From the IMG/VR virus record IMGVR_UViG_3300029511_000167: a stretch of 64,000 nucleotides of DNA. One strand, given 5' to 3'. The position numbers and the translations under genes are program-made. This document shows, in pieces, positions 4,570 to 32,803 of the stretch (the stretch's first letter is position 1; the number at the start of each line of letters is the position of its first letter). The notes beneath the pieces are model-generated. The model had not been told where the DNA came from. It did no database searches and saw only the letters and a program-made list of their open reading frames with translations. The stretch is from a virus. Lineage: Duplodnaviria > Heunggongvirae > Uroviricota > Caudoviricetes.

Positions 4570-4707
4570 GTTTCTTTTCTCCTTTTGAATTATAAATTTA
4601 TGTTTCGATTTTATTATGCAAGAAATAATTAGGAATAGCGAAAGATTTGATGTATTTTTTTTAACTAAAATCTTACGGTATTCTTACAGTCTGTATTTCC
4701 CTTGATT

Positions 4708-5409
4708 TTAAAGGATCATTTCGGTGTTTGAAACCCTGCAGTTATGTTTTACGATTGCATTCCAAGCTGTATCCTTCTGCTCTTTGGTTGGCTTAAAACA
4801 AATATCCTGTTTGGCAGAAATATAATTTCCCATGGACGGAAGATATCGTGTGGCAATCCAGCCAGCATCGATTAAGTTATCAAGCGCCTGATCCATTGGA
4901 ACTTTTTCATATACTTCATTTCTGCTGGTAAAACCAAACTCTTTATAATATGCAGCAATGTAGTAAAAAGCTTTCGCATTGTGTCCACCAAACTCACAAG
5001 AAAAAAATGCTCCATCCGGACGAATAAGCCCTTCAAATTTTTCCATATCATCTGGAATGACTCGAACATCTAAGGAACCAGGCCTGCGGTTTATTATATG
5101 TAAGATAAACTCTTCCGGTGCCATATCACTAATGCTTTTTTCGCTGCTTTTGCCCTGCTGCCGCTTCTGCTCTGTTTTTGTTGGCGTTTTTTGCATACGC
5201 TTAGTGGCCAAATATCTCTGATTTCTTTTTTTAAAACCGGGTTCTTCTTTACCCTTAATCTGCTCATAGATGGTTTCCCAGAAAGCATCTGCTTCTGCAG
5301 TTGCAAATGCGGGTGCTATTTTTCCATAGCAGCGAGCGATCAGCTTTTTAGCATTGCAGCGGTTTAGCAGCCACAGACCACACTGTGTATCCGGATCCCT
5401 ATTTGTCAT
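4708..5409 (-). CDS. hypothetical protein
   Basis: ORF track. The start was chosen at MTNRD, where ATG overlaps the upstream stop (ATGA) and so is translationally coupled to 5406..5855. Confidence 0.5.
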   Translation of the reverse strand: MTNRDPDTQCGLWLLNRCNAKKLIARCYGKIAPAFATAEADAFWETIYEQIKGKEEPGFKKRNQRYLATKRMQKTPTKTEQKRQQGKSSEKSISDMAPEEFILHIINRRPGSLDVRVIPDDMEKFEGLIRPDGAFFSCEFGGHNAKAFYYIAAYYKEFGFTSRNEVYEKVPMDQALDNLIDAGWIATRYLPSMGNYISAKQDICFKPTKEQKDTAWNAIVKHNCRVSNTEMIL

Positions 5410-5855
5410 ATCATTTTTCTTCCAATAGTCATGATCTGAAAGCAAAAATAATCATAAACATCCGTATAGGAATGGATCTCTTTTTGCTTAGCGTATTCAA
5501 TAGATTTAACGGTTGCATATGGGTCAATGTAGTTCATGGGATGCAGTTCCATATCCTGCTCAATTTCTTCTTCCAGAAGCTTTGTCCGCAGTTCTGCCAC
5601 TTTTTCCTGAATGGGACGAACCTTTTCATTATCTTCCACTAGCTCAAACACATTTGTTCCAATTAATTTCTTTTTTCCTTCTAGAATATCTCTTGCAATT
5701 GTTTTCTTTTCGCTTAGAGAAATTTCATCTGTTTCCAGCACAGTCAACAACAGTTCTTCTGACTTTTCATAAGCCTTATTTTCATGCCAGAACCATGTCC
5801 TTGCAAGGTCACAGATAAATTCTCCACAAATGCTCCAGTTTAAGGTTTTCATCAT
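5406..5855 (-). CDS. hypothetical protein
   Basis: ORF track. The start was chosen at MMKTLNW, preceded by the RBS agagggaaaac. Confidence 0.5.
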   Translation of the reverse strand: MMKTLNWSICGEFICDLARTWFWHENKAYEKSEELLLTVLETDEISLSEKKTIARDILEGKKKLIGTNVFELVEDNEKVRPIQEKVAELRTKLLEEEIEQDMELHPMNYIDPYATVKSIEYAKQKEIHSYTDVYDYFCFQIMTIGRKMI

Positions 5856-6082
5856 TTTGTTTTCCCTCTTTTCTTCTTTGCTGTAAATAGTATGGTGCGA
5901 TGATGGGCAAAACAATGATCTAAAATAGAGAAAAAACAAAAAAACCGGCATATGCCGGTTTCATGTTTTAATCAAACTATGTCAATGTGTACTTATTTTT
6001 CACTCAGTTGCCCAATAGAATTCTCCAACTTCTGGAGTTATTGTCTTCTCGTTTTTGTTTACCCACATAATGTTTTCCTTTC

Positions 6083-6568
6083 TTAATCGGAATCTGTTTC
6101 CAGCGCAATGTATCCGTTAAATACAAAGGTTGTATAACTCATATTTTTACAAAATGATTCCATGCCATAGTAATCTGATAAGGTCTGGTGGTCAATTCCT
6201 GCTGCGGAGACTGTTTTTGGTTCAATTAAAATACCATCACAGGTTCTATATTGTCTGACATATTCACAGATCTGCTGTTCCAAATTTTTAAACTCCCAGG
6301 ATTCAACAAAATCTTCAATGTCAAAAAAGGAACCGGTACAATAGCCAATAGTCAAAAGGTAGGATAATTTTTCTTCCTGTGTATCATAAATGCAGTGCTC
6401 TTTTCCAAAATACTGAAGTGGGACGATGATATAGCTTCCCATCACGCCATCTATTTTTCTTTTCTTAATGGTTAAATTAGGCCGTTCCAATCCTTTTTCA
6501 GAAATAGCCAGAGAATGTACACTGGAACTATTGGTTTCAAATACGTGTCTTCTTATTTTTCTTATCAT
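6083..6568 (-). CDS. hypothetical protein
   Basis: 161-aa ORF with no recognisable motif. A terminator hairpin lies downstream at 5942-5962. Confidence 0.5.
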   Translation of the reverse strand: MIRKIRRHVFETNSSSVHSLAISEKGLERPNLTIKKRKIDGVMGSYIIVPLQYFGKEHCIYDTQEEKLSYLLTIGYCTGSFFDIEDFVESWEFKNLEQQICEYVRQYRTCDGILIEPKTVSAAGIDHQTLSDYYGMESFCKNMSYTTFVFNGYIALETDSD

Positions 6569-6582
6569 CCGCTCATTCCTTT

Positions 6583-7230
6583 CTAGAAATTAACAATCGC
6601 AGCCGGGTCTCCATCCGGGTCTGCAGCAGAATAGACTCTTCCTACAATACAGTGCCTGTTTGGGTCGTATTCTACGATTACACCTGGTTCTCCTGGCGCA
6701 TCTGTCAGAGTTGCGATTCCAGGATATTCTTTATCTTTCATAATCTTTGCAGATATTGTACCTTTTGGTGTTTTGACTATTAGCTCCTGCTGTTTATCAA
6801 TAACAGCTGCTTCATCAAGAGGAATATCTTTCCACTCAGCATCTTCTACAATGGAACATTTTAGTCCCTGTTCATCTTGAATATATACTTTTAGCGTCCT
6901 GCCATCTGGCAAAATGACTTCTATCCCTTCTCTATCTTCTTCAGAAAATCCAAACGCTTCGAATCTAGCTTGGTGTTTCAAACCGTCAGAGTCTTTTACC
7001 ATAGCTATACTGCTGGATACATGTTCGGTTGCATATAAAGCATTTTCTGAGATGCTCCAATCTTCTGCGACTTTTTTTATGGCAGAATCCGGATCCGTAG
7101 CATATACTACATCCAAAAGAAGGTCCTGGGAAACATCCATCCACTTATTTTCTTCTGTCGTATCATTTAACTCAACAGTACAAATCTGAGCATCTCTCAT
7201 ATGTTTTGCATATACATTGTATTCTTTCAT
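6583..7230 (-). CDS. hypothetical protein
   Basis: 215-aa ORF with non-repetitive composition. Confidence 0.5.
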   Translation of the reverse strand: MKEYNVYAKHMRDAQICTVELNDTTEENKWMDVSQDLLLDVVYATDPDSAIKKVAEDWSISENALYATEHVSSSIAMVKDSDGLKHQARFEAFGFSEEDREGIEVILPDGRTLKVYIQDEQGLKCSIVEDAEWKDIPLDEAAVIDKQQELIVKTPKGTISAKIMKDKEYPGIATLTDAPGEPGVIVEYDPNRHCIVGRVYSAADPDGDPAAIVNF

Positions 7231-7250
7231 ATTTAATAATCCTTTCCTTT

Positions 7251-8144
7251 TCAGTTTCTGACGATCTGGAACATATCGGTTGCGTCATTTAAAAGCTTAA
7301 ATCTTTCATTTTCAGGAGCCGTTGAGCTTTTTGCAAAGGTCCTTTCTACTGCATCAATATAGTAAGTAAAGGAAGCATCTTCTCCCATGTAAAATTCTTC
7401 CCACTCTTCTTCTGTGAGCCTTTCTTTTATTTCCATCTGTTCAATGGCTAAATTGTCAAAGCTGATGGTATGAAATTTCCCAACATAGTCGCTTAAATTA
7501 TTTCTTAGCCACTGCATCTTCCTCTGAATTGCTTCTGTTTCTGCTTTATAGTAGCGTTCTCCTCTGCGAAGTTTTTTATATCCAAGAATCAGCAATTTGA
7601 TATTTTGGTTACTTAAAGCATCCAGTTCTTTTTCTGTAACAAGCCCTGCAATCACATGAACAACGGCATTTGGGAAATCCTTTACCATCTGAATCAATTC
7701 TTTTGTTGGCTTTGAAAGGGAAATTCCAAGCCCGTAAATGAGATTTTCTTTTACCAGCCTTTGGATGAATTTTCGGTTTTGTTCAAAATGGATTTGGTTT
7801 ACGGTGATATTGGTAATTACCTTCTGCTTTTTTAAAATATGTAAAAGCTCCACCAGGTCCGGATGCTCTAACACATTTCCACCACCGATGGCCACTTCCT
7901 GATAAGGCTTTAATGTATAGATAAAATCTTCCTTTAAAATATCCGCATGCTTTCCGGTTGCGCTACTGCTCTCATGACAAAACGGACAATTTGCACCAGT
8001 ACAGCGGTTGGTAATCTTTAAATCAATATTTTCAGCAAACTGAGGATGAAAGGTTCCTTCCTCCAGTTCTCTTATTTTTGTTCCATCTTCAAAAATCTTT
8101 ACAGTATAATTTCCATTTTTGTATTTTGCTAATTGTCGAATCAT
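7251..8144 (-). CDS. radical SAM domain protein (variant CX4CX2C cluster motif), paralog of 23027..23878
   Basis: ITNRCTGANCPFCHE near the N-terminus and an AIGGGNVLEHPDLVELL (GGE-type) motif. Start at MIRQLAKYK with RBS aaaaggagac. Confidence 0.6.
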   Translation of the reverse strand: MIRQLAKYKNGNYTVKIFEDGTKIRELEEGTFHPQFAENIDLKITNRCTGANCPFCHESSSATGKHADILKEDFIYTLKPYQEVAIGGGNVLEHPDLVELLHILKKQKVITNITVNQIHFEQNRKFIQRLVKENLIYGLGISLSKPTKELIQMVKDFPNAVVHVIAGLVTEKELDALSNQNIKLLILGYKKLRRGERYYKAETEAIQRKMQWLRNNLSDYVGKFHTISFDNLAIEQMEIKERLTEEEWEEFYMGEDASFTYYIDAVERTFAKSSTAPENERFKLLNDATDMFQIVRN

Positions 8145-8194
8145 AGATGAGTCTCCTTTTTTCTTTGATACCATTAGCATGTCGTTTTTTGAGT

Positions 8195-8221
8195 AAAAAA
8201 AAGAGACCGAAGTCTCTTTTC
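8195..8221. terminator. rho-independent terminator (hairpin gagaccgaagtctc)
   Basis: aaaaaaaagagaccgaagtctcttttcg. The identical 26-mer recurs at 18784-18811. Confidence 0.65.
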
Positions 8222-8236
8222 GAATTAATTTAGCTT

Positions 8237-8665
8237 CTATTTTTCCAAAAACTCCTGAAAAGACAGCATCTCTTCTGAGCATTCATTCATCAGCAATTTT
8301 TTAACTTCATATTGTAAAGAAATATTTCGTGGATCGATGGCAATAACTTGCTGCGCTGATACTCCGCGTTCTCTTAAGTCATTTCTATAAACCGATAATA
8401 ACTCTTCATCTGAGGTACATTCATAGTTTTCATCCGAATCATGATAATGAATCATTCCGACATAGAGAGAATTATCATTCCATAGACTTTCTAATGTTTG
8501 ATACACTTTTCCGCATTTTTCACAAACAAAATCGCCAGTAAATCCTGTTGAAATAAGCTTCTCTTCTTTTTTAATATTATAGTTCCCATCAATTACCACA
8601 TTTTGAACAACAGTTCTTTTTGTTTTAAATTTTGGGCATCCGCATTTCGAACAACGTTTCACCAT
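8237..8665 (-). CDS. zinc-ribbon hypothetical protein
   Basis: 142 aa with CSKCGC...CEKCG Cys pairs. Confidence 0.5.
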   Translation of the reverse strand: MVKRCSKCGCPKFKTKRTVVQNVVIDGNYNIKKEEKLISTGFTGDFVCEKCGKVYQTLESLWNDNSLYVGMIHYHDSDENYECTSDEELLSVYRNDLRERGVSAQQVIAIDPRNISLQYEVKKLLMNECSEEMLSFQEFLEK

Positions 8666-8677
8666 ATTCGCTCCTTT

Positions 8678-9475
8678 TTAATGTTCTGTATTCAGCTGCT
8701 CTTTCATTTTTACAAAGAAATCTCTGGTCTCATTTCTGTTTTTAAGCATTGCTGCTTTCTCATATTCTGAATATACATATGGTTCGTTCTTATTTAAATT
8801 ATTTAAGAAAGACAAGTCGATCTCGTCTTCCTCCGTTTCTTCTTCTTTTTTTGCCTTTTCACTGGCATCATCCAGGGTATCACTTTCTTCACCTATTGAT
8901 CGTACCCGTTTTCTTGAAGTATCATAATCAAAGCCGAACCAGGTCATTTCATATAAAATATTGGCGGCCACTTGGATTTCTCCATAGGTCCGAATTAAAG
9001 AATGAGGTATCTTATAAGTGATAACAGCTTTCCAGTCTTCCGCCATAAAATTATAGGTTGTAATTGGAAGCATTGCCTGTTTCATATCTTCCAATGTTTT
9101 GCAGACAGGAAACTGCTCTGGATCAAACTGTTTTAACTCCGCTTCATCAAATACGAACGTATCGTAACCGGTTGGGACTTCTAGGCCAGTCTCTTCTTCC
9201 AATTCATCATAGTATGGAACAATTCCTATGATGCAGGATTCGGTTTCTTTTCTTTGCTTCAGATTGCATATCTCACTGATGCACGTTTGTATTTTTCCTT
9301 TAAGGTCACTTGTTCCACAACTTAATTTTTCTTCCTTTGAAAGACTGGACGTATTGTGCTCCCGGTCGTAGCGCTCTATGATTTTTTCTGTACTGAAAAA
9401 GTTCGATACAAAATAATCGGCCAGTGTTTCTGGCTTTAATGCTTTAAATAGTTCCTGCACTGTAATGCTCTTCAT
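8678..9475 (-). CDS. hypothetical acidic protein
   Basis: 265-aa ORF. Motif agtatg lies at 9531-9536, upstream of the start. Confidence 0.5.
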   Translation of the reverse strand: MKSITVQELFKALKPETLADYFVSNFFSTEKIIERYDREHNTSSLSKEEKLSCGTSDLKGKIQTCISEICNLKQRKETESCIIGIVPYYDELEEETGLEVPTGYDTFVFDEAELKQFDPEQFPVCKTLEDMKQAMLPITTYNFMAEDWKAVITYKIPHSLIRTYGEIQVAANILYEMTWFGFDYDTSRKRVRSIGEESDTLDDASEKAKKEEETEEDEIDLSFLNNLNKNEPYVYSEYEKAAMLKNRNETRDFFVKMKEQLNTEH

Positions 9476-9624
9476 AAAAAACCTCCATTTTCAATGATTT
9501 ACTTTCTCTCTCTTTTTCTTTCTTTTTTTAGTATGTCTGATTTTTGTTCCTTTTGATAGCTCTTTCCTTTTCCTTTTCTTTTTTCTTACATACTAAATAA
9601 AACGGATACAGGGAGGAAGAAAAA

Positions 9625-9990
9625 ATGGAACAGATTACGGAGACATTAGAATATGTGAGTATGTTGATTCGCAACCGCGACGCAGCTGCAGCAAGCCTGA
9701 ATCGGAATTATTCAGAGGATGAGCGTCTTATGATTTTGATGAATGCAAAAAAATTATTTGCATATGCGGCTGCAGAAGAAATGCAGCCGATGTGCGGAGC
9801 CTGCTACACCTGCAAGCATCGAGGAACGATTCCAGGAGATGCTCATAGTTGCTGCAAGAACCCGCTTGCAATTGCCATCGGAGACGAATCCGGTGTGAAA
9901 CACGGGTGGTTCATGCATCCTTTTAATTTTGATCCAGTGTGGCTTCGCTACTGCGATGGATATGAGAAGAAAGAAAAAAAGAGAGCGTGA
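9625..9990 (+). CDS. hypothetical Cys/His-rich protein
   Basis: RBS gggaggaag, ATG at 9625. The plus-strand CATACTAAA motif lies 31 nt upstream. A terminator hairpin lies downstream at 9975-10006. Confidence 0.55.
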   Translation: MEQITETLEYVSMLIRNRDAAAASLNRNYSEDERLMILMNAKKLFAYAAAEEMQPMCGACYTCKHRGTIPGDAHSCCKNPLAIAIGDESGVKHGWFMHPFNFDPVWLRYCDGYEKKEKKRA

Positions 9991-10004
9991 CTGCTCTCTT
10001 TTTT

Positions 10005-10199
10005 TCAATTTAATATTGAACCGTCGGTAGTTTCCCAGCCAGTCACATGTTCTTTGTAAAACTCGTGTCCTTTTTCTCCGCTCCACTCTTCTTTTTTCTT
10101 GTCAAATTCAATGACTTCCTCGATCCAACAACCATTTTCTCCATAGTAGCAAACCTTATAGCGTCCACTCTTTCCCGGTTCAAATCGTTTCTGTGCCAT
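10005..10199 (-). CDS. hypothetical small protein
   Basis: 64-aa ORF ending at a bidirectional terminator. Confidence 0.4.
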   Translation of the reverse strand: MAQKRFEPGKSGRYKVCYYGENGCWIEEVIEFDKKKEEWSGEKGHEFYKEHVTGWETTDGSILN

Positions 10200-18244: not shown

Positions 18245-18727
18245 TTAAATGGTTTCAAAGCTGCTTCCATTATTTTTTAACCCATAAGCATTCAACATGG
18301 TTTTGTACACATACGGGTTTGGAACGTAGTGGTCACCTGTGAAATACTTGGAATCATCGCCGTTGTAGACACGTTCTAATGCAGCTGCAACGGCAGCCGA
18401 ACGGCTGATGCCTGCATAACAGTGGATGATTAAAAAATTAATCTGGTCCTTCTTTACCAGGTGCTCTACAAACGCTTTAATTTTAGCCGCATCTGCATCT
18501 GCCATGAGACGGCAGCCGCGGGCGGGTACTTCCGTATCGGAAAAGTAGATATTTAATACATCTTTCAGATTTCCGTTTGGAACGTACTGAAAAGCAGCTC
18601 TCCCTGGCTCTTCTTCCCGAATACTGATCATGGCAAAGCTATTCGGTGGGTTTTTCTGTACCGAATGGTTGTACACGTAATCAAATGCTTCTTTGTAGCT
18701 CATAACATAAATTGGAAAATTTAACAT
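18245..18727 (-). CDS. protein-tyrosine/dual-specificity phosphatase-like protein (CX5R active site)
   Basis: IHCYAGISRSAAV matches the HCxAGxxR(S) P-loop of Cys-based phosphatases. Motif agtatg lies 32 nt upstream. Confidence 0.65.
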   Translation of the reverse strand: MLNFPIYVMSYKEAFDYVYNHSVQKNPPNSFAMISIREEEPGRAAFQYVPNGNLKDVLNIYFSDTEVPARGCRLMADADAAKIKAFVEHLVKKDQINFLIIHCYAGISRSAAVAAALERVYNGDDSKYFTGDHYVPNPYVYKTMLNAYGLKNNGSSFETI

Positions 18728-18783
18728 ATAGTCTCTCCTTTTTTCTATATTTTTTATTAGTATGGATTTAAAAACAGGAAAAC

Positions 18784-18811
18784 AAAAAAAAGAGACCGAA
18801 GTCTCTTTTCT
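18784..18811. terminator. rho-independent terminator, second copy of the gagaccgaagtctc hairpin
   Basis: aaaaaaaagagaccgaagtctcttttc, identical to 8195-8221. Confidence 0.65.
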
Positions 18812-18821
18812 AAGGAAAGCG

Positions 18822-19727
18822 TTATGAGCGCTCTGGTTCTGTATTTGATAAGCTTTCTGAATGGTTCCTGGTTTCTAATGACAGCTCCTTCTTGGTATCA
18901 GAAATCATCCCATCCAGTGCACTTAAAGGTTCTTTCGTATACTCATAGAGAAAATCTTTAAGAACTGAGTAATACTTTGCCTGCTCTTTTTCAAAAAACT
19001 GGCAAAGTTCTTTGTACTCTTTTTTGGTTTGAGCCGTATTGAGTGCATGATAGTATTCAAGCTTATTCTCATCCTGAATAATAACGGGAATGATGTCAGA
19101 CGCAAGGCATTCCCGAAGCAGCAGCAGGCGGCCGGTTCTTCCGTTTCCATCTTGAAATGGATGAATGGTTTCATATGCAGCGTGAAACCTAGCCAAGCCT
19201 TCCACTGTATGTTTCTTTTCCGGGTCATAGTTTTGTAACAGTTCTTTCATCCGGTCGGAAACCTCATCTGGCCTTGCTGTTTTAATATTTGCAACCTGGT
19301 TTAATCGATTCTTATACTCTCCTACTGGATAACCATTTGCCAAATCTTCGAAGACTCCTGATTTTAATCGAAAATGAAATTTCTTTATCAGGTCTTCGGA
19401 TAGCGGTTCATGAAGAGTCTTAAGCATCTCATTGAACATAGCGAAATGTCCTGTCATCTCTTCAATGTCTTTCGCCTTAAAAATTTCTCCATCAGCCAGT
19501 ATCGTTCCTGTATCAAACAGAGACGCGGTCTGATCTGGAGTTAAGGTACTGCCTTCAATCTTATTGGAGTTATATGCCATTAGTTTTTGTGTTTTTGCAT
19601 AAATTCCACTCCGATCCATCTTTTCATGTTCAATTTTGAATCGTTCTTTTAACTGCTTTACCAGCGTTTCTTCATCATAAGTAGATAACTCATGAAAAGA
19701 GTTTTCTAAGATTTTATTAATATTCAT
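18822..19727 (-). CDS. fic: Fic family protein (AMPylase-type, with SxxxEG inhibitory motif)
   Basis: Canonical Fic motif HPFQDGNGRTGR. N-terminal SNKIEGS matches the [S/T]xxxE[G/N] autoinhibitory helix. Confidence 0.8.
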   Translation of the reverse strand: MNINKILENSFHELSTYDEETLVKQLKERFKIEHEKMDRSGIYAKTQKLMAYNSNKIEGSTLTPDQTASLFDTGTILADGEIFKAKDIEEMTGHFAMFNEMLKTLHEPLSEDLIKKFHFRLKSGVFEDLANGYPVGEYKNRLNQVANIKTARPDEVSDRMKELLQNYDPEKKHTVEGLARFHAAYETIHPFQDGNGRTGRLLLLRECLASDIIPVIIQDENKLEYYHALNTAQTKKEYKELCQFFEKEQAKYYSVLKDFLYEYTKEPLSALDGMISDTKKELSLETRNHSESLSNTEPERS

Positions 19728-19738
19728 GTTGATACTCC

Positions 19739-21205
19739 TTATCGTTCTATCTCTTCTTTTTCCAATTTCCCTGTTTCCATCTGGTCAATGATTTGTGTTA
19801 GTTTTTTTGAAAAGTCATGGAGAGATTCGTACTTTAATAAGAATGTTCCAAACGCCAACTCTTCATCATTTTCTTTCACATTTAATTCTTTCGTTTTTCC
19901 ATCGACACAAAAAGTCAGCTCTGGAACCTGCTTTGGAATAATCTCAAGCTCCAGGTTTCCATCTTCTTTTTCGTTTATGAAGCAGGTACCCATCAGACTC
20001 TTCTCAATGGAAGCTTTGATTTTTTCCAGATAGGTTTCCTGTTCTGAAACGTCTTTCTTTTCTGGTTTTGGTTTTTCTGGTTCCATATCTGGAATGAATA
20101 CGTCTTTTGTATATAAGGTTTCTTTAAAAAGCAGTGCAGCTGCCTGTTTATGAATCAGTTCTTCCAACCACTTGACTCGTTTTTTTGAAAAGTTTAAATC
20201 TCCCTGGAAGGAAAACTCGAAGTCTTTTAACGAAATTAAGTCTTTTCTGATTTCGCTTGTCACGGCCAGCTGCCCGACTCGGGTAAAATCGTCTCCGATT
20301 CGTGGGCCATATTCCAGAAGTTTTGTTCCAATTTTTGTGAACTCATCTTCTTCCACATAAGGAAGCATAGCCATATTTAAGTCAAAAACTGGAGCCATTT
20401 TAATTGGCTCTAATGTGTCGTTATGAATCAGAATTCCATAATTTCCCAGATGCCTGTCAACGTTAAAGGTTAATGCATCCAGCACCAGCATCCTTCGAAA
20501 GGTATCTTCTGAACCGATTGATGAAAAATACTGTAACACAGTATCCAGTGTCTTATTTTCCAGTGGAATTTTCGCCATAGGCACGTAGCCATATGTCTCA
20601 TTGGTAAATAATTGGCATTTTGTAGCGAGTTTTCCATGAAGCTTAACCAAATGATACGGAACGCATCCCGGACACAGCTGCAGCGCAATCTCAGACGCCA
20701 AGGCTTCGCAGTATGGCTCCAGTCCTGCATTTCTGGCTCCTTCCGAGCCTCTCTTGTAAAGAAAAATGCCATCGCTTTCTTTTTTCCAGCACTTTTTAAA
20801 GGAACCTTCTGTGGAAAGTTCTGGAGATGTATCAGAAAATTGAAAGTCCTGGAGACCTACACCTTCAAACGCCAGCTTTGAAATGATTTCATTGAATTCA
20901 TTTTGATAGAGAGAAACATCTTCCCATTTAAGAGTTTCATTTTCTGTTTTAACCCAAAACGTATCGTTTAAGGATGCGGCATGAGTGACTTGAATAAATC
21001 CAGACGTGGTACCACAGCCGCACTCTTCCATGATTTTTCGAATACTGGCATTGTGTTTTGAGGCTTTCCTATTTTCAAGCCATTCATTGATCTCATTCAT
21101 ACCAATGGGTAGTTTTCCAGATATTTCATCAAACACATAGTTTTCTGCTAACACTCCAGCGTCATGAAATTTTGCCACAATCTGGTTCTTGTTCATCAAA
21201 AACAT
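19739..21205 (-). CDS. HipA-like Ser/Thr kinase family protein
   Basis: LDALTFNVDRHLGNYGILI resembles the HipA catalytic-loop region. It is a paralog of 54029..55084 (shared SWEDI..QN.F block). ATG start MFLMNK with RBS gaggaggaaa. Confidence 0.6.
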   Translation of the reverse strand: MFLMNKNQIVAKFHDAGVLAENYVFDEISGKLPIGMNEINEWLENRKASKHNASIRKIMEECGCGTTSGFIQVTHAASLNDTFWVKTENETLKWEDVSLYQNEFNEIISKLAFEGVGLQDFQFSDTSPELSTEGSFKKCWKKESDGIFLYKRGSEGARNAGLEPYCEALASEIALQLCPGCVPYHLVKLHGKLATKCQLFTNETYGYVPMAKIPLENKTLDTVLQYFSSIGSEDTFRRMLVLDALTFNVDRHLGNYGILIHNDTLEPIKMAPVFDLNMAMLPYVEEDEFTKIGTKLLEYGPRIGDDFTRVGQLAVTSEIRKDLISLKDFEFSFQGDLNFSKKRVKWLEELIHKQAAALLFKETLYTKDVFIPDMEPEKPKPEKKDVSEQETYLEKIKASIEKSLMGTCFINEKEDGNLELEIIPKQVPELTFCVDGKTKELNVKENDEELAFGTFLLKYESLHDFSKKLTQIIDQMETGKLEKEEIER

Positions 21206-21238
21206 AGCTTTCCTCCTCAAAACATCAATTCTATGTCA

Positions 21239-21268
21239 ATTATAGTATGAGATTTTTTTCATGTCAAC
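21239..21268 (-). promoter_or_regulatory. sigma-70-type promoter TTGACA-17-TATAAT with embedded CATAC
   Basis: Minus-strand reading TTGACAtgaaaaaaatctcatacTATAAT, about 35 nt upstream of the 19739..21205 start. Confidence 0.6.
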
Positions 21269-21322
21269 GAAGGCACAGCTCCTTCTCTTTCTATGAAAAA
21301 AGGGCCTTAAGCCCTTTCTTAG

Positions 21323-22090
21323 TTAGTTAAGCCTAACAATCTGTTCATATAGCAAAATATCCTTATCGTTCATCGCATAGTTCAGGTGCATATGTCCCAT
21401 GAACCATTTTCTGTATTCCATTTTCTGTCTTATTTCTTCCAGATATTTTGTTAGAATGTCCTGTTCATAGAGACCTCGCCCAAGTAAAGCAATCATACTG
21501 GCCGATGGGCTGTGTGTTAGAATGAAGTCTACCTGATACTGATTCTTTTCAAGGTTTTTTCTTCCATTTTCCATTTCTTCCTCAGTTGGAAGCTCTTCTT
21601 CCCACCAGGAAAGTCCCTTTACCCGGAATCTGTATTTTCCTTCTTTTTCAAGTTTCTTAGCTTTTTCCTTCCATTTTTCATCCTTCCCATCTAGAATGCC
21701 ATCAGAAATGTCATGGGAGGAGGCTCCGCCAAAGGCAAAGAATTTCTTTCCTTCTAGGGTATAAATCTCTCCTCTTCTAAGCCTTACCACATTGGGTCTG
21801 ATTTCATTGACAAGGCCGCCATTCCATTCTTTTAATGGGAACTGGTTAAGTCTTGGGATATTATCATGATTCCCATCGATAAATGCTGTGGTAAACGGTT
21901 TCTCTTTTAACCAGTTTAAGTTATAATTTTCTTTTTTTGTTTCTTTGGGATCCCAGATGAGACCAAAATCGCCTAACTGTATCATGGTATTTTCTGCCGG
22001 ATCTATTCCAAACTCTTTCTGTTCGTAAAAAATTTTAGAGGAGAACCTGGATGGATCTCCATGAATATCTCCTGTTACATAAATGCCCAT
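21323..22090 (-). CDS. calcineurin-like metallophosphoesterase
   Basis: Motifs GDIHGD, GDFG, GNHD and GHMH. A terminator agggccttaagccct lies downstream. Confidence 0.7.
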   Translation of the reverse strand: MGIYVTGDIHGDPSRFSSKIFYEQKEFGIDPAENTMIQLGDFGLIWDPKETKKENYNLNWLKEKPFTTAFIDGNHDNIPRLNQFPLKEWNGGLVNEIRPNVVRLRRGEIYTLEGKKFFAFGGASSHDISDGILDGKDEKWKEKAKKLEKEGKYRFRVKGLSWWEEELPTEEEMENGRKNLEKNQYQVDFILTHSPSASMIALLGRGLYEQDILTKYLEEIRQKMEYRKWFMGHMHLNYAMNDKDILLYEQIVRLN

Positions 22091-22107: not shown

Positions 22108-22533
22108 TTAAGACTGAACGGGTTTCCATTTCGCTCGGATGTCAAAAAAATCTCCAATGGCACGAATCGTAAGACCCAACTGCTTACTCAGCTGCTTCTT
22201 CTGCTGCAGCTGCATTTCTTCTGTTTCTGTACTGATTATATCTGAAAAGGTTCTGGCAAGGCTGCTTTCTGGCAGCTTATTCTTCTCTGCACAGGATACA
22301 ACCGAATTTAATACTTCTTTTAATCTCTTAATTAACGAATCCATCCATTGACTATCTTTGCTTTCCAGTACCAGATCCATTTCTTCTTCTGTCAGGTCTG
22401 AAAAACAGATGCTCTCCCATTTTCCACTTCGTTCTATTCTGAAGTATACACCATCCAAATCTCTATTCATAGTCTTTTTCCTTTCCCTGAAGCAAAACAA
22501 GATATGCTTCAAAATATGAGTCTGTATTTCCAT
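22108..22533 (-). CDS. hypothetical protein
   Basis: 141-aa ORF. It overlaps the 3' end of 22463..23014, so its start is uncertain. Confidence 0.4.
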   Translation of the reverse strand: MEIQTHILKHILFCFRERKKTMNRDLDGVYFRIERSGKWESICFSDLTEEEMDLVLESKDSQWMDSLIKRLKEVLNSVVSCAEKNKLPESSLARTFSDIISTETEEMQLQQKKQLSKQLGLTIRAIGDFFDIRAKWKPVQS

Positions 22534-23014
22534 AAAACAATTGATACAGACTATCGCAATAGTTCATCCACTGCTCATTAGTTCCAAAATTTGGAATCCA
22601 ATAATGATGTTCTTTCTCATCTTCTGGAATAGTTCCGGTTAAGGAATATTCCAGATACATGCGAAGAAGATAACGGCTGATATCGGCAGAATACGCAGAA
22701 GTTCCACGCTTTTTACCTAAGAGCTTCTCTATATGATGTTTCAGATAACTATAATTTAGATAAATGAACTGAGGCTTGTACGGATCTGATACACTACTAT
22801 CTTTCGGCTTATGAAGATGTCTGACTGTTTTTTCCAGGATTTGCCTTAATGGAAATAAGAACATTACATCAAAATTTTCTGGATTGCTTAGCTTATAGGG
22901 ACTTTCTTTTAACTGCTCGGCCAGAGATTTTGAAAGTGTCCCATATTCTTTGTCTTCTTTTGAAGTAATGCTTTTTAACATTTCTTCCATTATTTCTCTT
23001 AATTCGTTTTCCAT
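22463..23014 (-). CDS. hypothetical protein
   Basis: 183-aa ORF downstream of, and co-oriented with, the radical SAM gene. Confidence 0.5.
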   Translation of the reverse strand: MENELREIMEEMLKSITSKEDKEYGTLSKSLAEQLKESPYKLSNPENFDVMFLFPLRQILEKTVRHLHKPKDSSVSDPYKPQFIYLNYSYLKHHIEKLLGKKRGTSAYSADISRYLLRMYLEYSLTGTIPEDEKEHHYWIPNFGTNEQWMNYCDSLYQLFYGNTDSYFEAYLVLLQGKEKDYE

Positions 23015-23026
23015 TTTTTTCCTTTC

Positions 23027-23878
23027 TTATGTTCTGTTTTCCTGTTTCCATCCGTTTGAACAAACGCCATTTTCATAGAGAACCAACTGTTCATTACTTT
23101 TATTTTTTGTTAGCAGCCGCAGACTTTTCACAAAGTCAGCCGCAGAAGCCCGCAGCATTGGATTCACTAAAAAGCAGGAACGCTTAAGCGTTATCAAAAG
23201 CGGATGCCCTGGCAGCTGCAGCTGCGTCTGACACCCATATGCGAATGGACTTTTGTACTTCACACCGTATGCTTTTTCAAATGATACATAAAGGTCTTTT
23301 TCAAATTGAAGTTCGTTAATCTTAACATGCTGAACGCCACACTCTTCCATTTTTTTTAGAAATGCATCAATTTCTTCTTTGGTATCAATCTGACCTTTTA
23401 TGAGGTTTATTGATACCCGTACTTTGTCAGCATAAGCGTTGCAAATTTTCTTTGTTAAGGCAATCCTGTCATGTCTTGATGAAGCATGAAGAATGTCATT
23501 ATTTTTCTCTGGATCATAATGCTGCAAAGAAATATTAAGACCATCAATGTAGTCCATAATTTTTGTAAATGTATTCCAGTTATCTTCTACCGTCTTTGGC
23601 AAAGAAGTTGTAACATAGATATGATCCACAAAGGATCTGATTCCTCTTACATACAGCAGCAGCTCATGCGGCAGCAGAAGCGGTTCTCCACCAAGAACCA
23701 AAATCTCTTTTTTTCCTGTTTTAATGGTTTCCATGATTAGCCGGTTTACATCGGTTTTCTCGCCTTTCACTCCATTTCGCTCAATACAAAACGGACAGGT
23801 GTTATCGCACCTCTTTGTAAAGCGAACGTCCAGGCTATCTTTATAAAAACCATCACATGAATTATTAAATGAAATCAT
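23027..23878 (-). CDS. radical SAM domain protein (CX3CX2C; viperin/MoaA-like N-terminal layout)
   Basis: FTKRCDNTCPFCIE near the N-terminus and LVLGGEPLL. Nine Cys in total. The RBS aaaggag lies directly after the stop of the upstream micro-ORF. Confidence 0.7.
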   Translation of the reverse strand: MISFNNSCDGFYKDSLDVRFTKRCDNTCPFCIERNGVKGEKTDVNRLIMETIKTGKKEILVLGGEPLLLPHELLLYVRGIRSFVDHIYVTTSLPKTVEDNWNTFTKIMDYIDGLNISLQHYDPEKNNDILHASSRHDRIALTKKICNAYADKVRVSINLIKGQIDTKEEIDAFLKKMEECGVQHVKINELQFEKDLYVSFEKAYGVKYKSPFAYGCQTQLQLPGHPLLITLKRSCFLVNPMLRASAADFVKSLRLLTKNKSNEQLVLYENGVCSNGWKQENRT

Positions 23879-23889
23879 GGTACTCCTTT

Positions 23890-23967
23890 CTAATGGCAGC
23901 CGATAGAGTGGCAGCCGCAGCTGCGTTTGGCAGTTTTAATAATGAATTTTGTTAATTTTGTAAACAT
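23890..23967 (-). CDS. 25-aa Cys-rich micro-ORF (MFTKLTKFIIKTAKRSCGCHSIGCH), candidate precursor or leader peptide
   Basis: RBS aaggagacgact before ATG. Its stop is 11 nt from the radical SAM start (translationally coupled). The C-terminus is SCGCHSIGCH. Confidence 0.4.
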   Translation of the reverse strand: MFTKLTKFIIKTAKRSCGCHSIGCH

Positions 23968-23984
23968 AGTCGTCTCCTTATTTT

Positions 23985-24506
23985 TTAAATCATCATCAGA
24001 TGTCCTAATCTTTCATATCCGGCTTTTTCAGTCAGTTCTGCAAATTCAGGACAAGTATCAGTAAGATATGCAAACACCAATCCAGTAAAAGACTGCTGAA
24101 GGGTTCTGTGTTCCCTTGTAAACAGCATGGCTACCTCATACGGGTTATTACATTTAAATCGTGGTTCATGATAATAATCAGATGTCTCCGGATCAAAGTC
24201 TTTTGTTTGTTTGAAAATTACATTGTCTGTTTCTGTAAGCAGAAGTTTATTGCAAATCTTATATGCCTGCTCATTTCTGGCATCATAAGCGTATGGATTT
24301 TTAAACAGTGTTCCAATGGTTCGGATCCAGTACCATGAAATTTCATCCATTCTCTTCTTTGCAGTCTCAGCCGCAGCGATGGCTTGGATCATTTCTTTGG
24401 TTGACATGGAAAATGAGTTAACCATGTTTGAAATGGTTTTTGTCATAGTTTCCGGTTCATAATCAGTTTTTAACAGCTCTACAAAATTTGCTTCATATTC
24501 TCTCAT
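23985..24506 (-). CDS. hypothetical protein
   Basis: 173-aa ORF, first gene of the putative operon containing the micro-ORF and the radical SAM gene. Confidence 0.5.
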   Translation of the reverse strand: MREYEANFVELLKTDYEPETMTKTISNMVNSFSMSTKEMIQAIAAAETAKKRMDEISWYWIRTIGTLFKNPYAYDARNEQAYKICNKLLLTETDNVIFKQTKDFDPETSDYYHEPRFKCNNPYEVAMLFTREHRTLQQSFTGLVFAYLTDTCPEFAELTEKAGYERLGHLMMI

Positions 24507-29831: not shown

Positions 29832-30611
29832 TTATTTTTCAAATACATTTCGAAATGCATTCAGATTCGGGCCTGACGGAATCGCAAATACTACGGTGTC
29901 AAAGCTTTGTCTCTGCTTTAATGCCTCTGCGAAACACTCTGCTGTTTCTTCTGCTGCTTGCCCAAATACACCACATCCGAATGCGCCTAGAATCAGTATA
30001 TCAACTTTTTTGGAATTTGCAATATCAACCACAAACTGAATCCTGTCTTTTAATGCTTTTAGATTTTCTTCGTCTGATACATGCTGATACGTTTGTGCCG
30101 CGTGTTTGTTTGGCGCAGCGCAGGTAATAACATCGCAATGAACAGATTTTCCATTTCGTTCAAATCGCACATTTGGCGTATACAGCGCCCGATTGGTATA
30201 GAGAGCCTTGTTTTTGTGTGCCTGATTCCACTCATAATAGCTTTCTTTTTTTGAAAGCACGTTATAGAGAAATGACTCATGGCATAAGGACTCTTCCTGG
30301 GCAGAACTTCCATTTAAGAACATGCCACCCGGATTCTTATAGGAGGCAAAATTTAATACAGCAGTTTTTCCATCCTTTGCGTGTCTCATGATACTTTCTA
30401 CACTGTCGGATTCTTCCAAGAGAATTTTCATTCTTCCTTTTTCATCCATTCTTTTTGCTGTTTTTTCAAATGGTACTGCTTTTTCGGTTGCTGTTAATAC
30501 GATTGTCTCTGCGGCTGCCTTTGCAATTTCGTCTGCATGAGTTTCTTCCATTAATTTCGTATGAAGAACGGCCTTCTTTGCACGTTCTTCCTTGTTTTTC
30601 CAATAGCTCAT
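29832..30611 (-). CDS. macrodomain protein of the bacterial PARG-like / TIGR02452 (DUF2263) type
   Basis: LNFASYKNPGGMFLNGSSAQEESLCHESFLY contains the PARG signature GG-X8-QEE. C-terminal ILGAFGCGVFGQ. Confidence 0.65.
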   Translation of the reverse strand: MSYWKNKEERAKKAVLHTKLMEETHADEIAKAAAETIVLTATEKAVPFEKTAKRMDEKGRMKILLEESDSVESIMRHAKDGKTAVLNFASYKNPGGMFLNGSSAQEESLCHESFLYNVLSKKESYYEWNQAHKNKALYTNRALYTPNVRFERNGKSVHCDVITCAAPNKHAAQTYQHVSDEENLKALKDRIQFVVDIANSKKVDILILGAFGCGVFGQAAEETAECFAEALKQRQSFDTVVFAIPSGPNLNAFRNVFEK

Positions 30612-30622
30612 ATGGTTTCTCC

Positions 30623-32803
30623 TTATTTTTCTTCTGTTTTCTGTTTTCTTTTTTCATAAAGTTTCCTGACATGGCAGATATTGCTGCTTGGATCGTTAAG
30701 CTGAATGATTCCTTTTTCCAGTAATTCTTTTGCAAATACAATGAATCTGAAATCATCTGCTGATAATGCAGCCATATTTAGCAGCTGCAGCCGCCCAAGC
30801 AGGCCGCGTCTGCGTTTCCATGTCTTATAGTAGTTTAATTTGAGTTTGAACATGAAGTGGTTTGTATCTTCAAGCACAAACCCTTCAATGGGCTTTCCAT
30901 TATAGGTGTATGTACCATTCTGATCCGATTTTAGCAGGTTCTGATACCAGGCATCAAATTCATCGTAGGTGTTAAACTTAAATACCAGCTTTTTCGGCTG
31001 CAGATGGTAGGCAGCTGCAAAGGCCAATAGCTCTTCATAGCTTTTTTTCTGGAAATCAAACTCGTTTTTAATGATATCCAGAAGATAGACCTCGCTGTCT
31101 TCATAATCGATGATATGCGGGTCGTTTACCTGGTCCACACACTCAAAGACCAGCGTTTCAGAATGTTCTTTCAGATACTTCTTTAATGATTCTATCGTTT
31201 CTTCTGAAAGTTTCTTATAAAGCATATCTTTAAAACAGCCTGCGGCTTTTCCCGTCGGATCTGATTTTGTGGTGATAAACAGCTCATCTTTTTCTTTGTT
31301 AAAGCTTACCATACCAAGAAATCCATTTTCTTTAACATACGCTTCTACTGGAAATACCAGTTTTTCTTTCAGATTATGATACATGGTTTCTTCTACTTCG
31401 TCTACAGCGAAAAACTTATCATATCCACGACAGACCAGTTCTTCTGTTTTTGTATTAAGGTAAAGTCCACGGGCCTTGACCGTTCGTTCATTCCATACCC
31501 GGTTATTGAAAGCTTCCCTTGAAAAATTAAAAGAAGAAATCGAATCAAACTTTTTTTCTTTAATGTACGGGTCTTTTCTTAAGGTTTCAATTGCATCATG
31601 AACTGTTGAAAAATCAGTTTCCGGCTTTCGGTATACGGTGTTTCTAATTTCAGTTGTTTCTATCCCAGCAGCAGAGACAACAGCAGCCCGCAAGAAGCCG
31701 CCAAGTTCTACTTTTCCTTCTAGATTGTAGTTTCGATTGGTAGAATGAACTGGATAGCCAAAATTTCGATGTCCGTGAATCTGGTAGATATGATTGGGCA
31801 TGGATGCATCAAACATTTCTTCGGCTTCTTTTACATCAGGATAACCGCCAACACCGTGGATCATCTGTTCGGTAGAAAGAAAGATTGGATTTCCAGGAAT
31901 GGTACTTACACCGCCATGGCAGCCAAAGACAACTTTATCGTGATAGCGGTAGTATACACACTGAGCAAGCTTTCGATAAAAAATACGTACTTCTTTTTTT
32001 GAAATACCTGCTGCTTCCAGTTCTTTTGCCGTATGCTCCTCAAATTCTTTTGACGGAGTATGCTCATTATGTGCCCATAGGTGTAACCACCGCTCATGAT
32101 TTCCTTCCAGCAGCAGAACATTTTCTCTTTTTGAAAGGTTCATCATAAGTTTTAAAGTGTTCACATTATCTGGGCCGCGATCCAGATAGTCGCCATGGAA
32201 AATGTAAAACTCATCTTCTTTCAGTCCGCCTTTAAGATAACACTGCAATGCGTCAAAGCACCCGTGAATATCTCCAATGTGGTGGATCTTCTTATATTTA
32301 CTGAAATCCAGCGGCATAAGCAGCAGTTTTTCAAACTCATCTGGCTTGATAAATGGAAAATCTGCATAAAACGGCAGCTGCAGCCACTTACAAAACTTTT
32401 CCATCACCTCATCTGGCACTTGTTCTACCTGGCTGCGGCTACGGTTGCGGCGCATCGCATCTGCGAGGCTAATATCCGTAAAATCCACACCTATAATGCG
32501 GTAGCGATAGGTTTTTGCAAGGGTGCGATACTTATTTACATCTTTCTGAAGAATATTAGTGGCGTCAATGATTAAAAATTCACCTCGCGCCATTCTCTTT
32601 TCTGCAATCTTTGTTAGAAGCTCCCACACTTCCTTATCGTTCATTCGGGATGTTTTAATCCTTCCATCAATACCCAACACTGGGCCTTCATAAAGTCTTC
32701 GAATAGTATCTGAGCTTAATGTATAAGGCTCCAGCTGGTGTTCTTTTATCCAGGTTGTTTTTCCAGAAGCTGGAATTCCTCTAAGTAATACTAGTGTTCT
32801 CAT
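30623..32803 (-). CDS. pnkp: polynucleotide kinase-phosphatase Pnkp with C-terminal ligase-like nucleotidyltransferase domain (RNA end-healing/sealing enzyme)
   Basis: N-terminal P-loop LRGIPASGKTT, as in a 5' kinase. Central calcineurin-type phosphoesterase motifs IGDIHGC, GDYLDRGP and GNHE. C-terminal covalent-NTase-like motifs EGFVLED and FKLKL. No hen1 gene is adjacent. Confidence 0.75.
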   Translation of the reverse strand: MRTLVLLRGIPASGKTTWIKEHQLEPYTLSSDTIRRLYEGPVLGIDGRIKTSRMNDKEVWELLTKIAEKRMARGEFLIIDATNILQKDVNKYRTLAKTYRYRIIGVDFTDISLADAMRRNRSRSQVEQVPDEVMEKFCKWLQLPFYADFPFIKPDEFEKLLLMPLDFSKYKKIHHIGDIHGCFDALQCYLKGGLKEDEFYIFHGDYLDRGPDNVNTLKLMMNLSKRENVLLLEGNHERWLHLWAHNEHTPSKEFEEHTAKELEAAGISKKEVRIFYRKLAQCVYYRYHDKVVFGCHGGVSTIPGNPIFLSTEQMIHGVGGYPDVKEAEEMFDASMPNHIYQIHGHRNFGYPVHSTNRNYNLEGKVELGGFLRAAVVSAAGIETTEIRNTVYRKPETDFSTVHDAIETLRKDPYIKEKKFDSISSFNFSREAFNNRVWNERTVKARGLYLNTKTEELVCRGYDKFFAVDEVEETMYHNLKEKLVFPVEAYVKENGFLGMVSFNKEKDELFITTKSDPTGKAAGCFKDMLYKKLSEETIESLKKYLKEHSETLVFECVDQVNDPHIIDYEDSEVYLLDIIKNEFDFQKKSYEELLAFAAAYHLQPKKLVFKFNTYDEFDAWYQNLLKSDQNGTYTYNGKPIEGFVLEDTNHFMFKLKLNYYKTWKRRRGLLGRLQLLNMAALSADDFRFIVFAKELLEKGIIQLNDPSSNICHVRKLYEKRKQKTEEK

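Follow-up and report, generated by a model that had tools for sequence, protein, structure and literature searches.

Radical S-adenosylmethionine (radical SAM) enzymes that modify ribosomal peptides are a main source of new peptide chemistry. To our knowledge, nearly all of them are bacterial, carry SPASM and RRE domains, and are encoded in multigene clusters. The sactipeptide and ranthipeptide systems (SCIFF; CteB/CteA, SkfB/SkfA, and AlbA) combine a radical SAM enzyme that has SPASM/twitch auxiliary clusters with a small Cys-rich precursor; PqqA/PqqE and MftA/MftC need a SPASM domain, an RRE partner (PqqD and MftB, respectively), and further pathway genes; and in the His-Xaa-Ser system, a short peptide with a repeated His motif (HxsA) is paired with two radical SAM proteins (HxsB and HxsC). 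How does a two-gene locus from a virus compare with these systems? Here, we analyzed a 64,000-nucleotide (nt) stretch of Caudoviricetes DNA (IMG/VR record IMGVR_UViG_3300029511_000167; this whole stretch is hereafter called the window), in which a 25-amino acid (aa) micro open reading frame (micro-ORF) with paired Cys and His residues lies directly upstream of the gene for a 283-aa radical SAM protein. Unlike the SCIFF/sactipeptide systems, the locus has only this compact enzyme, in which no SPASM or RRE domain was detected and the candidate auxiliary ligands are split between an N-terminal Cys (C8) and a C-terminal hairpin (C216/C235); the putative core consists of Cys-His or His-Cys dyads, which also occur fused to the enzyme and on the tails of other proteins, in a phage context with no protease or exporter nearby. 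The requirements of PqqA/PqqE and MftA/MftC were not found here either. The His-Xaa-Ser system is similar in its short, repeated, His-containing peptide and in a weak N-terminal match of the enzyme to HxsC (27.8 bits), but here there is one radical SAM protein rather than two, and the motif is Cys-His rather than His-x-Ser. What sets the system apart is that it has only two parts (one if fused), falls in no curated family, and is found in phages of very different hosts (GC content 20 to 57%). No radical SAM chemistry on adjacent Cys-His pairs is described in the literature that we could search.

The micro-ORF (MFTKLTKFIIKTAKRSCGCHSIGCH; 25 aa plus stop) occupies positions 23890 to 23967 on the minus strand, with its TAG stop codon at 23890 to 23892. 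A Shine-Dalgarno sequence, AAGGAG (23974 to 23979, minus), precedes its ATG with a spacer of 6 nt, and similar motifs precede most of the related peptide ORFs described below. Residues 1 to 15 (MFTKLTKFIIKTAKR; 23923 to 23967, minus) form a basic, hydrophobic leader, plausibly an amphipathic helix, that contains the family motif M-x-T-K-[LI]-x-K, in which the T of the "TK" position is nearly invariant in peptide alignments. Residues 16 to 25 (SCGCHSIGCH; 23893 to 23922, minus) form the core, with two Gly-flanked Cys-His dyads, the second of which is the very C terminus of the peptide; the core DNA contains a direct repeat, CGGCTGCCA...CGGCTGCCA. Exactly 11 nt (AAAGGAGTACC) separate the micro-ORF from the ATG of the radical SAM gene, and this gap holds the ribosome-binding site of that gene, AAAGGAG (23883 to 23889, minus), which begins directly after the micro-ORF stop codon and is identical in the three nearest relatives of the window (loci L031, L032, and L100). 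The two genes are the middle members of four minus-strand genes arranged head to tail: a 173-aa ORF (23985 to 24506), the micro-ORF, the radical SAM gene (23027 to 23878), and a 183-aa ORF (22463 to 23014), with successive intergenic gaps of 17, 11, and 12 nt. A first-pass annotation, made from the sequence alone, had described the micro-ORF, its ribosome-binding site and spacer, the 11-nt gap, and the leader-like N terminus followed by a SCGCHSIGCH core; the positions are exact, and the leader-plus-core layout is shared across the peptide family.

Is so short a reading frame a gene? A 25-codon ORF is by itself no evidence, because the surrounding 5 kb holds 69 ORFs of 20 aa or more; the reality of the micro-ORF follows instead from its conservation at other loci. 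We collected loci with homologs of the radical SAM protein from species-representative genomes, IMG/VR, JGI metagenomes, and exact-protein look-ups; most of them are phage or huge-phage contigs. In total, a partner dyad element is present in about 33 of 41 dereplicated radical SAM loci, across 27 to 95% radical SAM identity and 20 to 57% GC, always on the same strand as the radical SAM gene. In members of the family, the leader (M-KK-[LM]-I-T-K-[LI]...) is basic and hydrophobic, and the C-terminal core consists of two to five Gly-flanked Cys-His or His-Cys pairs, spaced 2 to 30 residues apart. Within the clade of the window, in which the enzymes are 51 to 60% identical, the upstream peptides include MKKMITKITKKLLNTVGCHTVVTGCHSVRKY (L085), MKKMLTKLTKKVIRFCSCHLTGDGCHPRRY (L086), MKRFFTKMVRAIAGFTGCHSGGCHDWGWR (L089), MLTKICKMLLSNCSCHSRNPGCH (L066), MKMFQRYFTKAVRRMAGLCGCHGWGCHGWGCHS (L001, a Heritagella metagenome-assembled genome [MAG]), MFRHFLTYVARKMARSCGCHGWGCHGWRCH (L083), and MLYKLYFIKSRSCHGSGGCH (L079). 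Reversed, His-Cys dyads are found in peptides directly downstream of the radical SAM gene at loci that had seemed to have no peptide (MGKMLTKLTKMILKIIIKSGHCGSDSGPSGHCH and MWTKFVLKMVRFAKSHAGGHCGESGGSGHCG), and one reversed form carries four GGHCG units.

A profile hidden Markov model (HMM) built from 17 peptides and run against 23,800 stop-to-stop frames of the homolog loci gave 32 matches at E ≤ 2e-4, every one of them on the radical SAM strand, with noise beginning at E ≥ 0.027; the E-values of family members and background frames thus differ by a factor of more than 100. The micro-ORF of the window scored E = 1.6e-7. The spacers of the peptides vary while leader and dyads are kept, and the dyad residues are written in different codons (Cys, 50 TGT and 28 TGC; His, 56 CAT and 12 CAC). 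Because Cys and His codons vary while the residues are retained, selection acts on the peptide and not on the DNA or RNA. Judged by this conservation, the Cys-His-dyad peptides are real genes of an undescribed family that accompanies a single small family of radical SAM proteins from phages. The literature available to us contains no description of the radical SAM family or of dyad peptides, which is not proof that they are unpublished.

The family is also nearly invisible to existing resources. When 23 peptides were compared with NCBIfam and Pfam (E ≤ 10), nothing consistent emerged, with one stray Clo7bot match (E = 0.024) for one member, and no curated precursor model, SCIFF (TIGR03973) and Clo7bot (TIGR04333) included, describes the peptides. 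When 5.8 billion proteins were searched with a peptide profile whose first sequence was 54 aa long, just eight members of the family came up, none of them named, because ORFs of this length mostly escape gene calling; at the one new locus from this search that was inspected (L101), a radical SAM gene lies 2 kb downstream. In IMG/VR, a DNA pattern for leader plus core gave seven matches, of which six were true peptides, all from one Lactobacillus-phage lineage; the fetched stretch contained a radical SAM homolog for five of the six, and the stretch for the sixth was only 1.6 kb long. A core-only pattern (CGCH-xx-GCH) was too unspecific to be of use, with 31 IMG/VR matches that were all off-frame noise in GC-rich DNA, and a tblastn search of GenBank phages with one peptide gave no match.

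Where does the dyad element reside relative to the enzyme? It is found as an ORF upstream of the radical SAM gene, as a downstream ORF overlapping the radical SAM stop codon (MKKNKLITRIARFIAGIRGCHFTGGCHS, MKKLITKLARAISRSRGCHEIETGCH from contigs resembling Lactobacillus phages, and further examples), as an ORF 2 to 3 kb away, on the tail of a neighboring protein, and on the tail of the radical SAM protein itself. The remote peptide ORFs (L033, L068 to L070, and L088) lie 1.7 to 3 kb off on the same strand. The overlapping and the remote ORFs emerged when every locus was scanned for short ORFs carrying two or more Cys-His dyads. In three huge-phage-like contigs (L097, L098, and L015), the dyads end a 122- to 171-aa protein encoded directly upstream (e.g., ...RCHIFVSSDGCHPIFGSSGCH); these carrier proteins are not one family, showing at most weak homology (21% over 117 aa between L097 and L098). 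A dyad tail is fused to the radical SAM C terminus in about 25 distant representatives and at L027, L028, L076, L077, and L080 (e.g., ...GW-TN-GGCHGGCHGPPPDRGCH), and in one protein, P0257, the dyads are internal, inserted ahead of the last beta-strands. The architecture tracks the enzyme phylogeny: fused forms have radical SAM proteins 27 to 33% identical to that of the window, downstream ORFs that overlap the stop codon accompany enzymes of 36 to 48% identity, and the upstream, remote, or neighbor-tail forms accompany those of 51 to 60% identity. A divergent partner form may exist at L021, where a 118-aa protein (4616 to 4972) directly upstream of a 36%-identical radical SAM gene ends in a Cys/Gly tail without His (...STSSCGSGLGSSC).

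These arrangements bear on the simplest alternative, that the micro-ORF is a regulatory upstream ORF, a device for translational coupling, or a chance ORF. Its stop codon lies 11 nt before the radical SAM ATG, beside the ribosome-binding site of that gene, and ORFs of such size are common by chance, both of which would suit this account. In most clades, though, the homologous ORF is downstream, kilobases away, or fused; the amino acid motif is conserved with varied codons; and the HMM sets the peptides far apart from the 23,800 background frames. There was no Rfam match around the micro-ORF, and promoter- and terminator-like signals did not exceed those of shuffled sequence, so an RNA element, attenuator, promoter, or terminator at this site was rejected as well. 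Because position is not conserved, residues are conserved, and fusions exist, we regard a regulatory ORF, coupling device, or chance ORF as excluded in practice and as the most improbable of the readings considered here. The suggestion in the first-pass annotation of a regulatory leader peptide, therefore, does not hold, and translational coupling, which it also proposed, is possible in the window but is not conserved across the family. Its expectation of a conserved Cys-rich ORF directly upstream at homologous loci was borne out for the partner, which is conserved in most lineages, and often failed for the position.

What kind of enzyme accompanies the peptide? The radical SAM protein (23027 to 23878, minus) belongs to a small, uncharacterized, mostly phage-borne family and contains, as previously reported, FTKRCDNTCPFCIE, GGEPLL, and nine Cys residues (positions 8, 24, 28, 31, 146, 180, 216, 235, and 273). 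It has the hallmarks of the radical SAM superfamily (the CX3CX2C motif, the SAM-binding GGE motif, and a partial TIM-barrel fold). We scanned it against the curated families of Pfam, NCBIfam, PADLOC, and PHROGs; PF04055 (49.8 bits against a cut-off of 29.5) was the only Pfam match at E ≤ 0.01, and no curated NCBIfam family reached its cut-off. Six Cys residues (C8, C24, C28, C31, C216, and C235) are 99 to 100% conserved in 226 full-length members. Among them are the CX3CX2C cluster motif (C24, C28, and C31; 23786 to 23809, minus), which is 100% conserved in these members; Cys8 of the N-terminal NSCDG motif (23855 to 23857, minus; 99% conserved), a candidate auxiliary Fe-S ligand; and Cys216 to Cys235 (23174 to 23233, minus; 100% conserved), candidate auxiliary-cluster ligands. 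In an AlphaFold2 (AF2) model of the protein (mean predicted local distance difference test [pLDDT] 92), a beta-hairpin lies between C216 and C235, with a helix after it (strands at 217 to 220 and 228 to 232, helix at 246 to 257), which suggests the topology of twitch auxiliary-cluster domains. The three residues C8, C216, and C235 would thus be the protein ligands of a probable second [4Fe-4S] cluster, twitch-like and with one free iron, in keeping with an auxiliary cluster having been raised as a possibility in the first-pass annotation.

Apart from N-S-C-D-G at the N terminus, the family shares invariant GGEP, K-I-N-E-L-Q, G-C-Q, and K-R-S-C-F motifs and a terminal V-L-Y-E-D-G-x4-G-W. A search of 1.84 billion cluster representatives with a profile of 30 homologs matched 154 of them at E ≤ 1e-30, a number that rose to 316 at E ≤ 1e-10, by which measure the family is small and sharply bounded; source names for its members are only automatic labels such as "MoaA." Several known enzymes were considered and rejected on profile scores: MoaA (TIGR02666; 36.6 bits against a cut-off of 284), viperin/pVip (NF038283, 30.0 against 180 bits; TIGR04278, 20.9 against 450; PADLOC pVip, only 36.6 bits), HxsC (TIGR03977; cut-off 267.9 bits, with the match confined to residues 20 to 83), the glycyl-radical enzyme activase (TIGR02494; about 26 bits against 174), and PqqE (17.3 bits against 381). 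Pfam and NCBIfam profiles found no SPASM domain, no RRE (PqqD-like) domain, and no SCIFF-maturase match in the protein. By sequence and fold, its nearest relatives are viperin and MoaA, as the first-pass annotation had supposed in placing it closer to these than to SPASM maturases, and structure-based comparison gave generic radical SAM-core matches only. Viperin differs in having neither the auxiliary-cluster Cys triad nor a peptide partner, and the family has motifs of its own (NSCDG, GCQ, KRSCF, and VLYEDGxxxxGW); MoaA differs in the placement of its Cys ligands and in its Gly-Gly tail, where the present family has a Cys-His peptide, and no molybdenum cofactor-pathway genes lie near the locus.

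Taken together, the micro-ORF and the radical SAM gene are best explained as a self-contained, two-part system carried mainly by phages. We favor the reading that they form an enzyme-substrate pair of the kind that makes peptides that are ribosomally synthesized and modified after translation (RiPPs), in which the peptide is modified by the radical SAM protein, and we put its probability at roughly 55%; the "RiPP-like cassette" of the first-pass annotation is, to that extent, the best reading of the evidence, with its chemistry a matter of conjecture. The gene-level part of the general RiPP definition is present, in that a leader-plus-core precursor is encoded with the enzyme and the linkage is family-wide. 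A leader followed by a repeated core that varies in copy number (two to five), spacing, and order is the layout of iteratively modified RiPP substrates. An AF2 model of one fused member has a disordered tail (pLDDT about 30), which fits a flexible substrate arm and is uninformative as to whether the tail is substrate or accessory. Split and fused enzyme-substrate forms have precedents in RiPPs: in borosins, enzyme and substrate are one self-modifying polypeptide (the OphMA-type fused form) or separate genes (the bacterial split form) (bioRxiv 10.1101/2021.12.24.474128), and BURP-domain cyclases likewise occur split and fused (PMC10107690). As in those systems, both forms coexist here, with the core at the enzyme C terminus when fused; unlike here, their enzymes (a SAM N-methyltransferase and a copper cyclase) are unrelated to radical SAM proteins, perform other chemistry, and are not phage-borne.

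How might such a pair work? The leader would dock on the enzyme, with the covalent link taking its place in fused members, and a dyad cysteine would bind the open site of the auxiliary cluster. Reductive cleavage of SAM would then give a 5'-deoxyadenosyl radical that abstracts a hydrogen atom at or beside the dyad, leading at each dyad in turn to a Cys-centered modification, such as a thioether or other crosslink or an oxidation at the Cys beta-carbon, or else to something new involving the neighboring His; computation leaves all of these chemistries in play. Because no protease or exporter is conserved nearby and the motif also occurs on larger proteins and on the enzyme itself, the product is probably not secreted but retained by the infected cell, in the form of a peptide-derived cofactor or of a modified peptide or tail. 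A broader version of this reading, to which we give somewhat less than even odds, would make the family a widespread class of virus-encoded radical SAM proteins, found in gut phages, in huge-phage-like contigs, and more distantly in Lak megaphages, in which a compact two-cluster enzyme iteratively turns Cys-His dyads into a new crosslink or a peptide-derived cofactor. The dyads would be presented by a free peptide of 20 to 60 aa, by another protein's tail, or by the C terminus of the enzyme itself, and the product would be used inside the infected cell, possibly for counter-defense or host takeover. This would amount to a new RiPP-like class with new radical SAM chemistry and a minimal maturase that has neither SPASM nor RRE.

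The main alternative is that the enzyme uses the Cys-His tail or peptide as an accessory module, not as its substrate, and that the radical SAM protein acts elsewhere, perhaps on a nucleotide. Such a module could complete the coordination of the auxiliary cluster as its fourth ligand, bring in metal or Fe-S, serve as a sacrificial sulfur donor, pass electrons on, or open and close the active site, and a split peptide would be a detachable subunit held by its leader. Flexible Cys/His-rich C-terminal tails are typical of metallochaperones, and in MoaA itself the auxiliary cluster is held by three Cys and the C-terminal tail is essential for function. Fusion of the tail to the enzyme in many members, the internal dyads of P0257, the nucleotide substrates of viperin and MoaA, purifying selection on the radical SAM gene where the peptide is broken (see below), and the lack of conserved tailoring, protease, or export genes nearby all speak for this view. 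Against it, the dyads vary in number (2 to 5), spacing (2 to 30 residues), and order, unlike a defined ligand set or gate; the tail is also carried by unrelated proteins of 120 to 170 aa; the leader and repeated core resemble a substrate; and the neighborhood has no conserved pathway gene and no candidate for a second substrate. On balance, we consider an accessory role less likely than a substrate role, though well short of negligible.

Several observations weigh against the enzyme-substrate reading. The proposed chemistry of the pair is hypothetical, no protease, exporter, or immunity gene is conserved beside it, the nearest relatives of the enzyme act on nucleotides and not on peptides, and an accessory tail would account just as well for the fusion to the enzyme. 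No partner was found within the available DNA at L065, L026, L029, L078, and the Lak-B1 locus, and His is absent from the Cys-containing variants at L003 (MIKKICITLLKLAKAVGCGGGCR) and L021. What argues most strongly against the peptide being strictly required is that the micro-ORF is broken in the nearest relatives of the window. L100 represents the same phage: its DNA matches the window at 99.9% over 16.8 kb, and its radical SAM protein is identical. There (10001 to 10102), a 1-nt deletion (TCTATCGGC to TCTACGGC) causes a frameshift that removes the second dyad and yields MFTKLTKFIIKTAKRSCGCHSTAAIRKEYHDFI. At L031 and L032, whose radical SAM proteins are 95% identical to that of the window, homology to the window starts inside the micro-ORF, so that only its last seven codons' worth remains; the residual frame (...AKIIIAVVKRSCGCH, ending in KRSCGCH) has no ATG, GTG, or TTG start, and a 15-nt deletion has removed one CGGCTGCCA unit between the direct repeats, an event that in L031 is explained by the repeat. 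The region upstream of the radical SAM gene is rearranged in both (L031, 4357 to 6014; L032, 1042 to 1688), with a TnpB (OrfB_IS605), a duplicated 40-residue fragment of the radical SAM N terminus (90% identical), and an unrelated 97- to 107-aa ORF. The radical SAM genes of L031 and L032 are themselves probably still functional, given 25 synonymous against 13 nonsynonymous codon changes relative to the window. The peptide thus looks dispensable or decaying in the lineage of the window; the differences could mean that one dyad suffices, that the peptide is dispensable in this lineage, or that the assemblies contain errors. Disruption in close relatives had been named in the first-pass annotation as grounds for abandoning its cassette, and this is in part what was found, with one relative frameshifted and two truncated while the wider family is conserved.

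Could the peptide simply be an independent phage product, such as a toxin, a lysis modulator, or a metal sequestrant, that is metal-binding or membrane-active and lies near the radical SAM gene as a fellow accessory gene? The leader is plausibly an amphipathic basic helix, the Cys/His core could by its sequence bind Zn, Cu, or Ni, and the pair sits in islands of accessory genes. The linkage, on the other hand, spans 27 to 95% radical SAM identity, unrelated backgrounds, and four architectures including covalent fusion, and no other neighbor gene is conserved: the radical SAM loci share no neighbors beyond lineage-level synteny, and among them we found no conserved protease, exporter, or immunity gene. 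Because the linkage survives the complete turnover of all other neighbor genes, an independent peptide is very unlikely. The 183-aa gene downstream of the pair (phrog_32020) was likewise considered as a third component and rejected, being common only to near-identical phages.

The finding is broader than the first-pass annotation anticipated, in that an undescribed family of dyad peptides and tails, in four architectures, is tied to an uncharacterized radical SAM family. Should the dyads be substrates, the system would contribute a novel posttranslational modification and give peptide engineering a compact maturase that depends on a leader, and phages would make modified peptides or cofactors during infection; should they be accessory, it would represent a new way for a radical SAM enzyme to use a detachable Cys/His tail. 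Either outcome would annotate a gene family now labeled only "radical SAM" or mislabeled "MoaA."

The window also encodes a second radical SAM protein (7251 to 8282, minus; phrog_16999, "Fe-S oxidoreductase," 152 bits), which is no part of the system. The first-pass annotation had placed it at 7251 to 8144, which is right on the stop side; position 8144 corresponds to an internal Met (Met47), and the ORF reaches 8282, giving 343 aa from the first ATG. As that annotation noted, its cluster motif has an unusual CX4CX2C spacing (NRCTGANCPFC), and it has no companion peptide: in an HMM search of the whole window, no dyad peptide was found near it, and only the micro-ORF scored below E = 3, the rest being noise at E 3 to 10. 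The protein barely passes the PF04055 cut-off (30.2 against 29.5 bits). The description of it as a paralog did not survive comparison: by BLASTP, it matches the first radical SAM protein at just 11 of 34 residues near the cluster motif, and its family is a different one. We therefore reject it as a paralog and also as another copy of the system.

How does the genomic setting relate to a phage origin? All genes in the window are codirectional, and it looks like the accessory part of the genome of a large uncultivated phage. The homolog loci are also phage-like, on contigs of up to 492 to 532 kb, and the inspected copy of P0025 is on a 137-kb contig. No near-identical DNA was found in GenBank phages, where a protein search recovered radical SAM homologs only in the 540- to 550-kb Lak megaphages, at 36% identity. 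In Lak-B1 (L099, a Prevotella phage with a 548-kb genome; MK250020.1, 7279 to 14121), no dyad ORF was found within 3 kb of the gene, even with TAG read as Gln. L003, on a 400-kb contig of a Riflebacteria MAG, is possibly a non-phage chromosomal copy, judged from Pfam matches of six neighbor ORFs; there (5807 to 9666), the radical SAM gene and its His-less peptide are followed by convergent ABC_membrane and ABC_tran exporter genes, which could hint at export in bacteria.

Genes for NAD salvage and ADP-ribose processing recur beside the radical SAM gene in several unrelated phage backgrounds (L033, 2323 to 8406; L088, 2471 to 2917; L101, 8910 to 9356; L097, 11171 to 13807; window, 29832 to 30611) and include NAMPT, PRPP-synthetase-like, NadE, Nudix/NrtR, isochorismatase, NADAR, NAPRTase, and microbial PARG genes. 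Such neighbors suggest, by association only, a role in counter-defense or host takeover, and their recurrence may reflect either the clustering of counter-defense genes or a functional link. In the window, the microbial PARG gene (29832 to 30611) adjoins a gene for a 726-aa fusion of a polynucleotide kinase/phosphatase and a T4-type RNA ligase (30623 to 32803, minus; phrog_8238, 651 bits), which looks like a tRNA-repair enzyme.

Elsewhere, the window contains a ClpB-like protease gene (1 to 2397) and genes for endolysin-like proteins, a flotillin-like protein, a DUF4349 protein, and two HipA-like kinases. A TnpB/IS605-type transposase gene lies at 46741 to 47850 (minus; phrog_506, 458 bits), so that a TnpB-type element is found both in the window and beside the rearranged radical SAM locus of L031. 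A run of host-manipulation-type genes at 18245 to 22090 (minus) comprises a metallophosphoesterase (21323 to 22090, minus), a 493-aa HipA-like kinase (similar to PADLOC PDC-M03A), a Fic protein (18822 to 19727, minus), and a DSP-like phosphatase, and the second HipA-like gene is located at 54029 to 55084 (minus).

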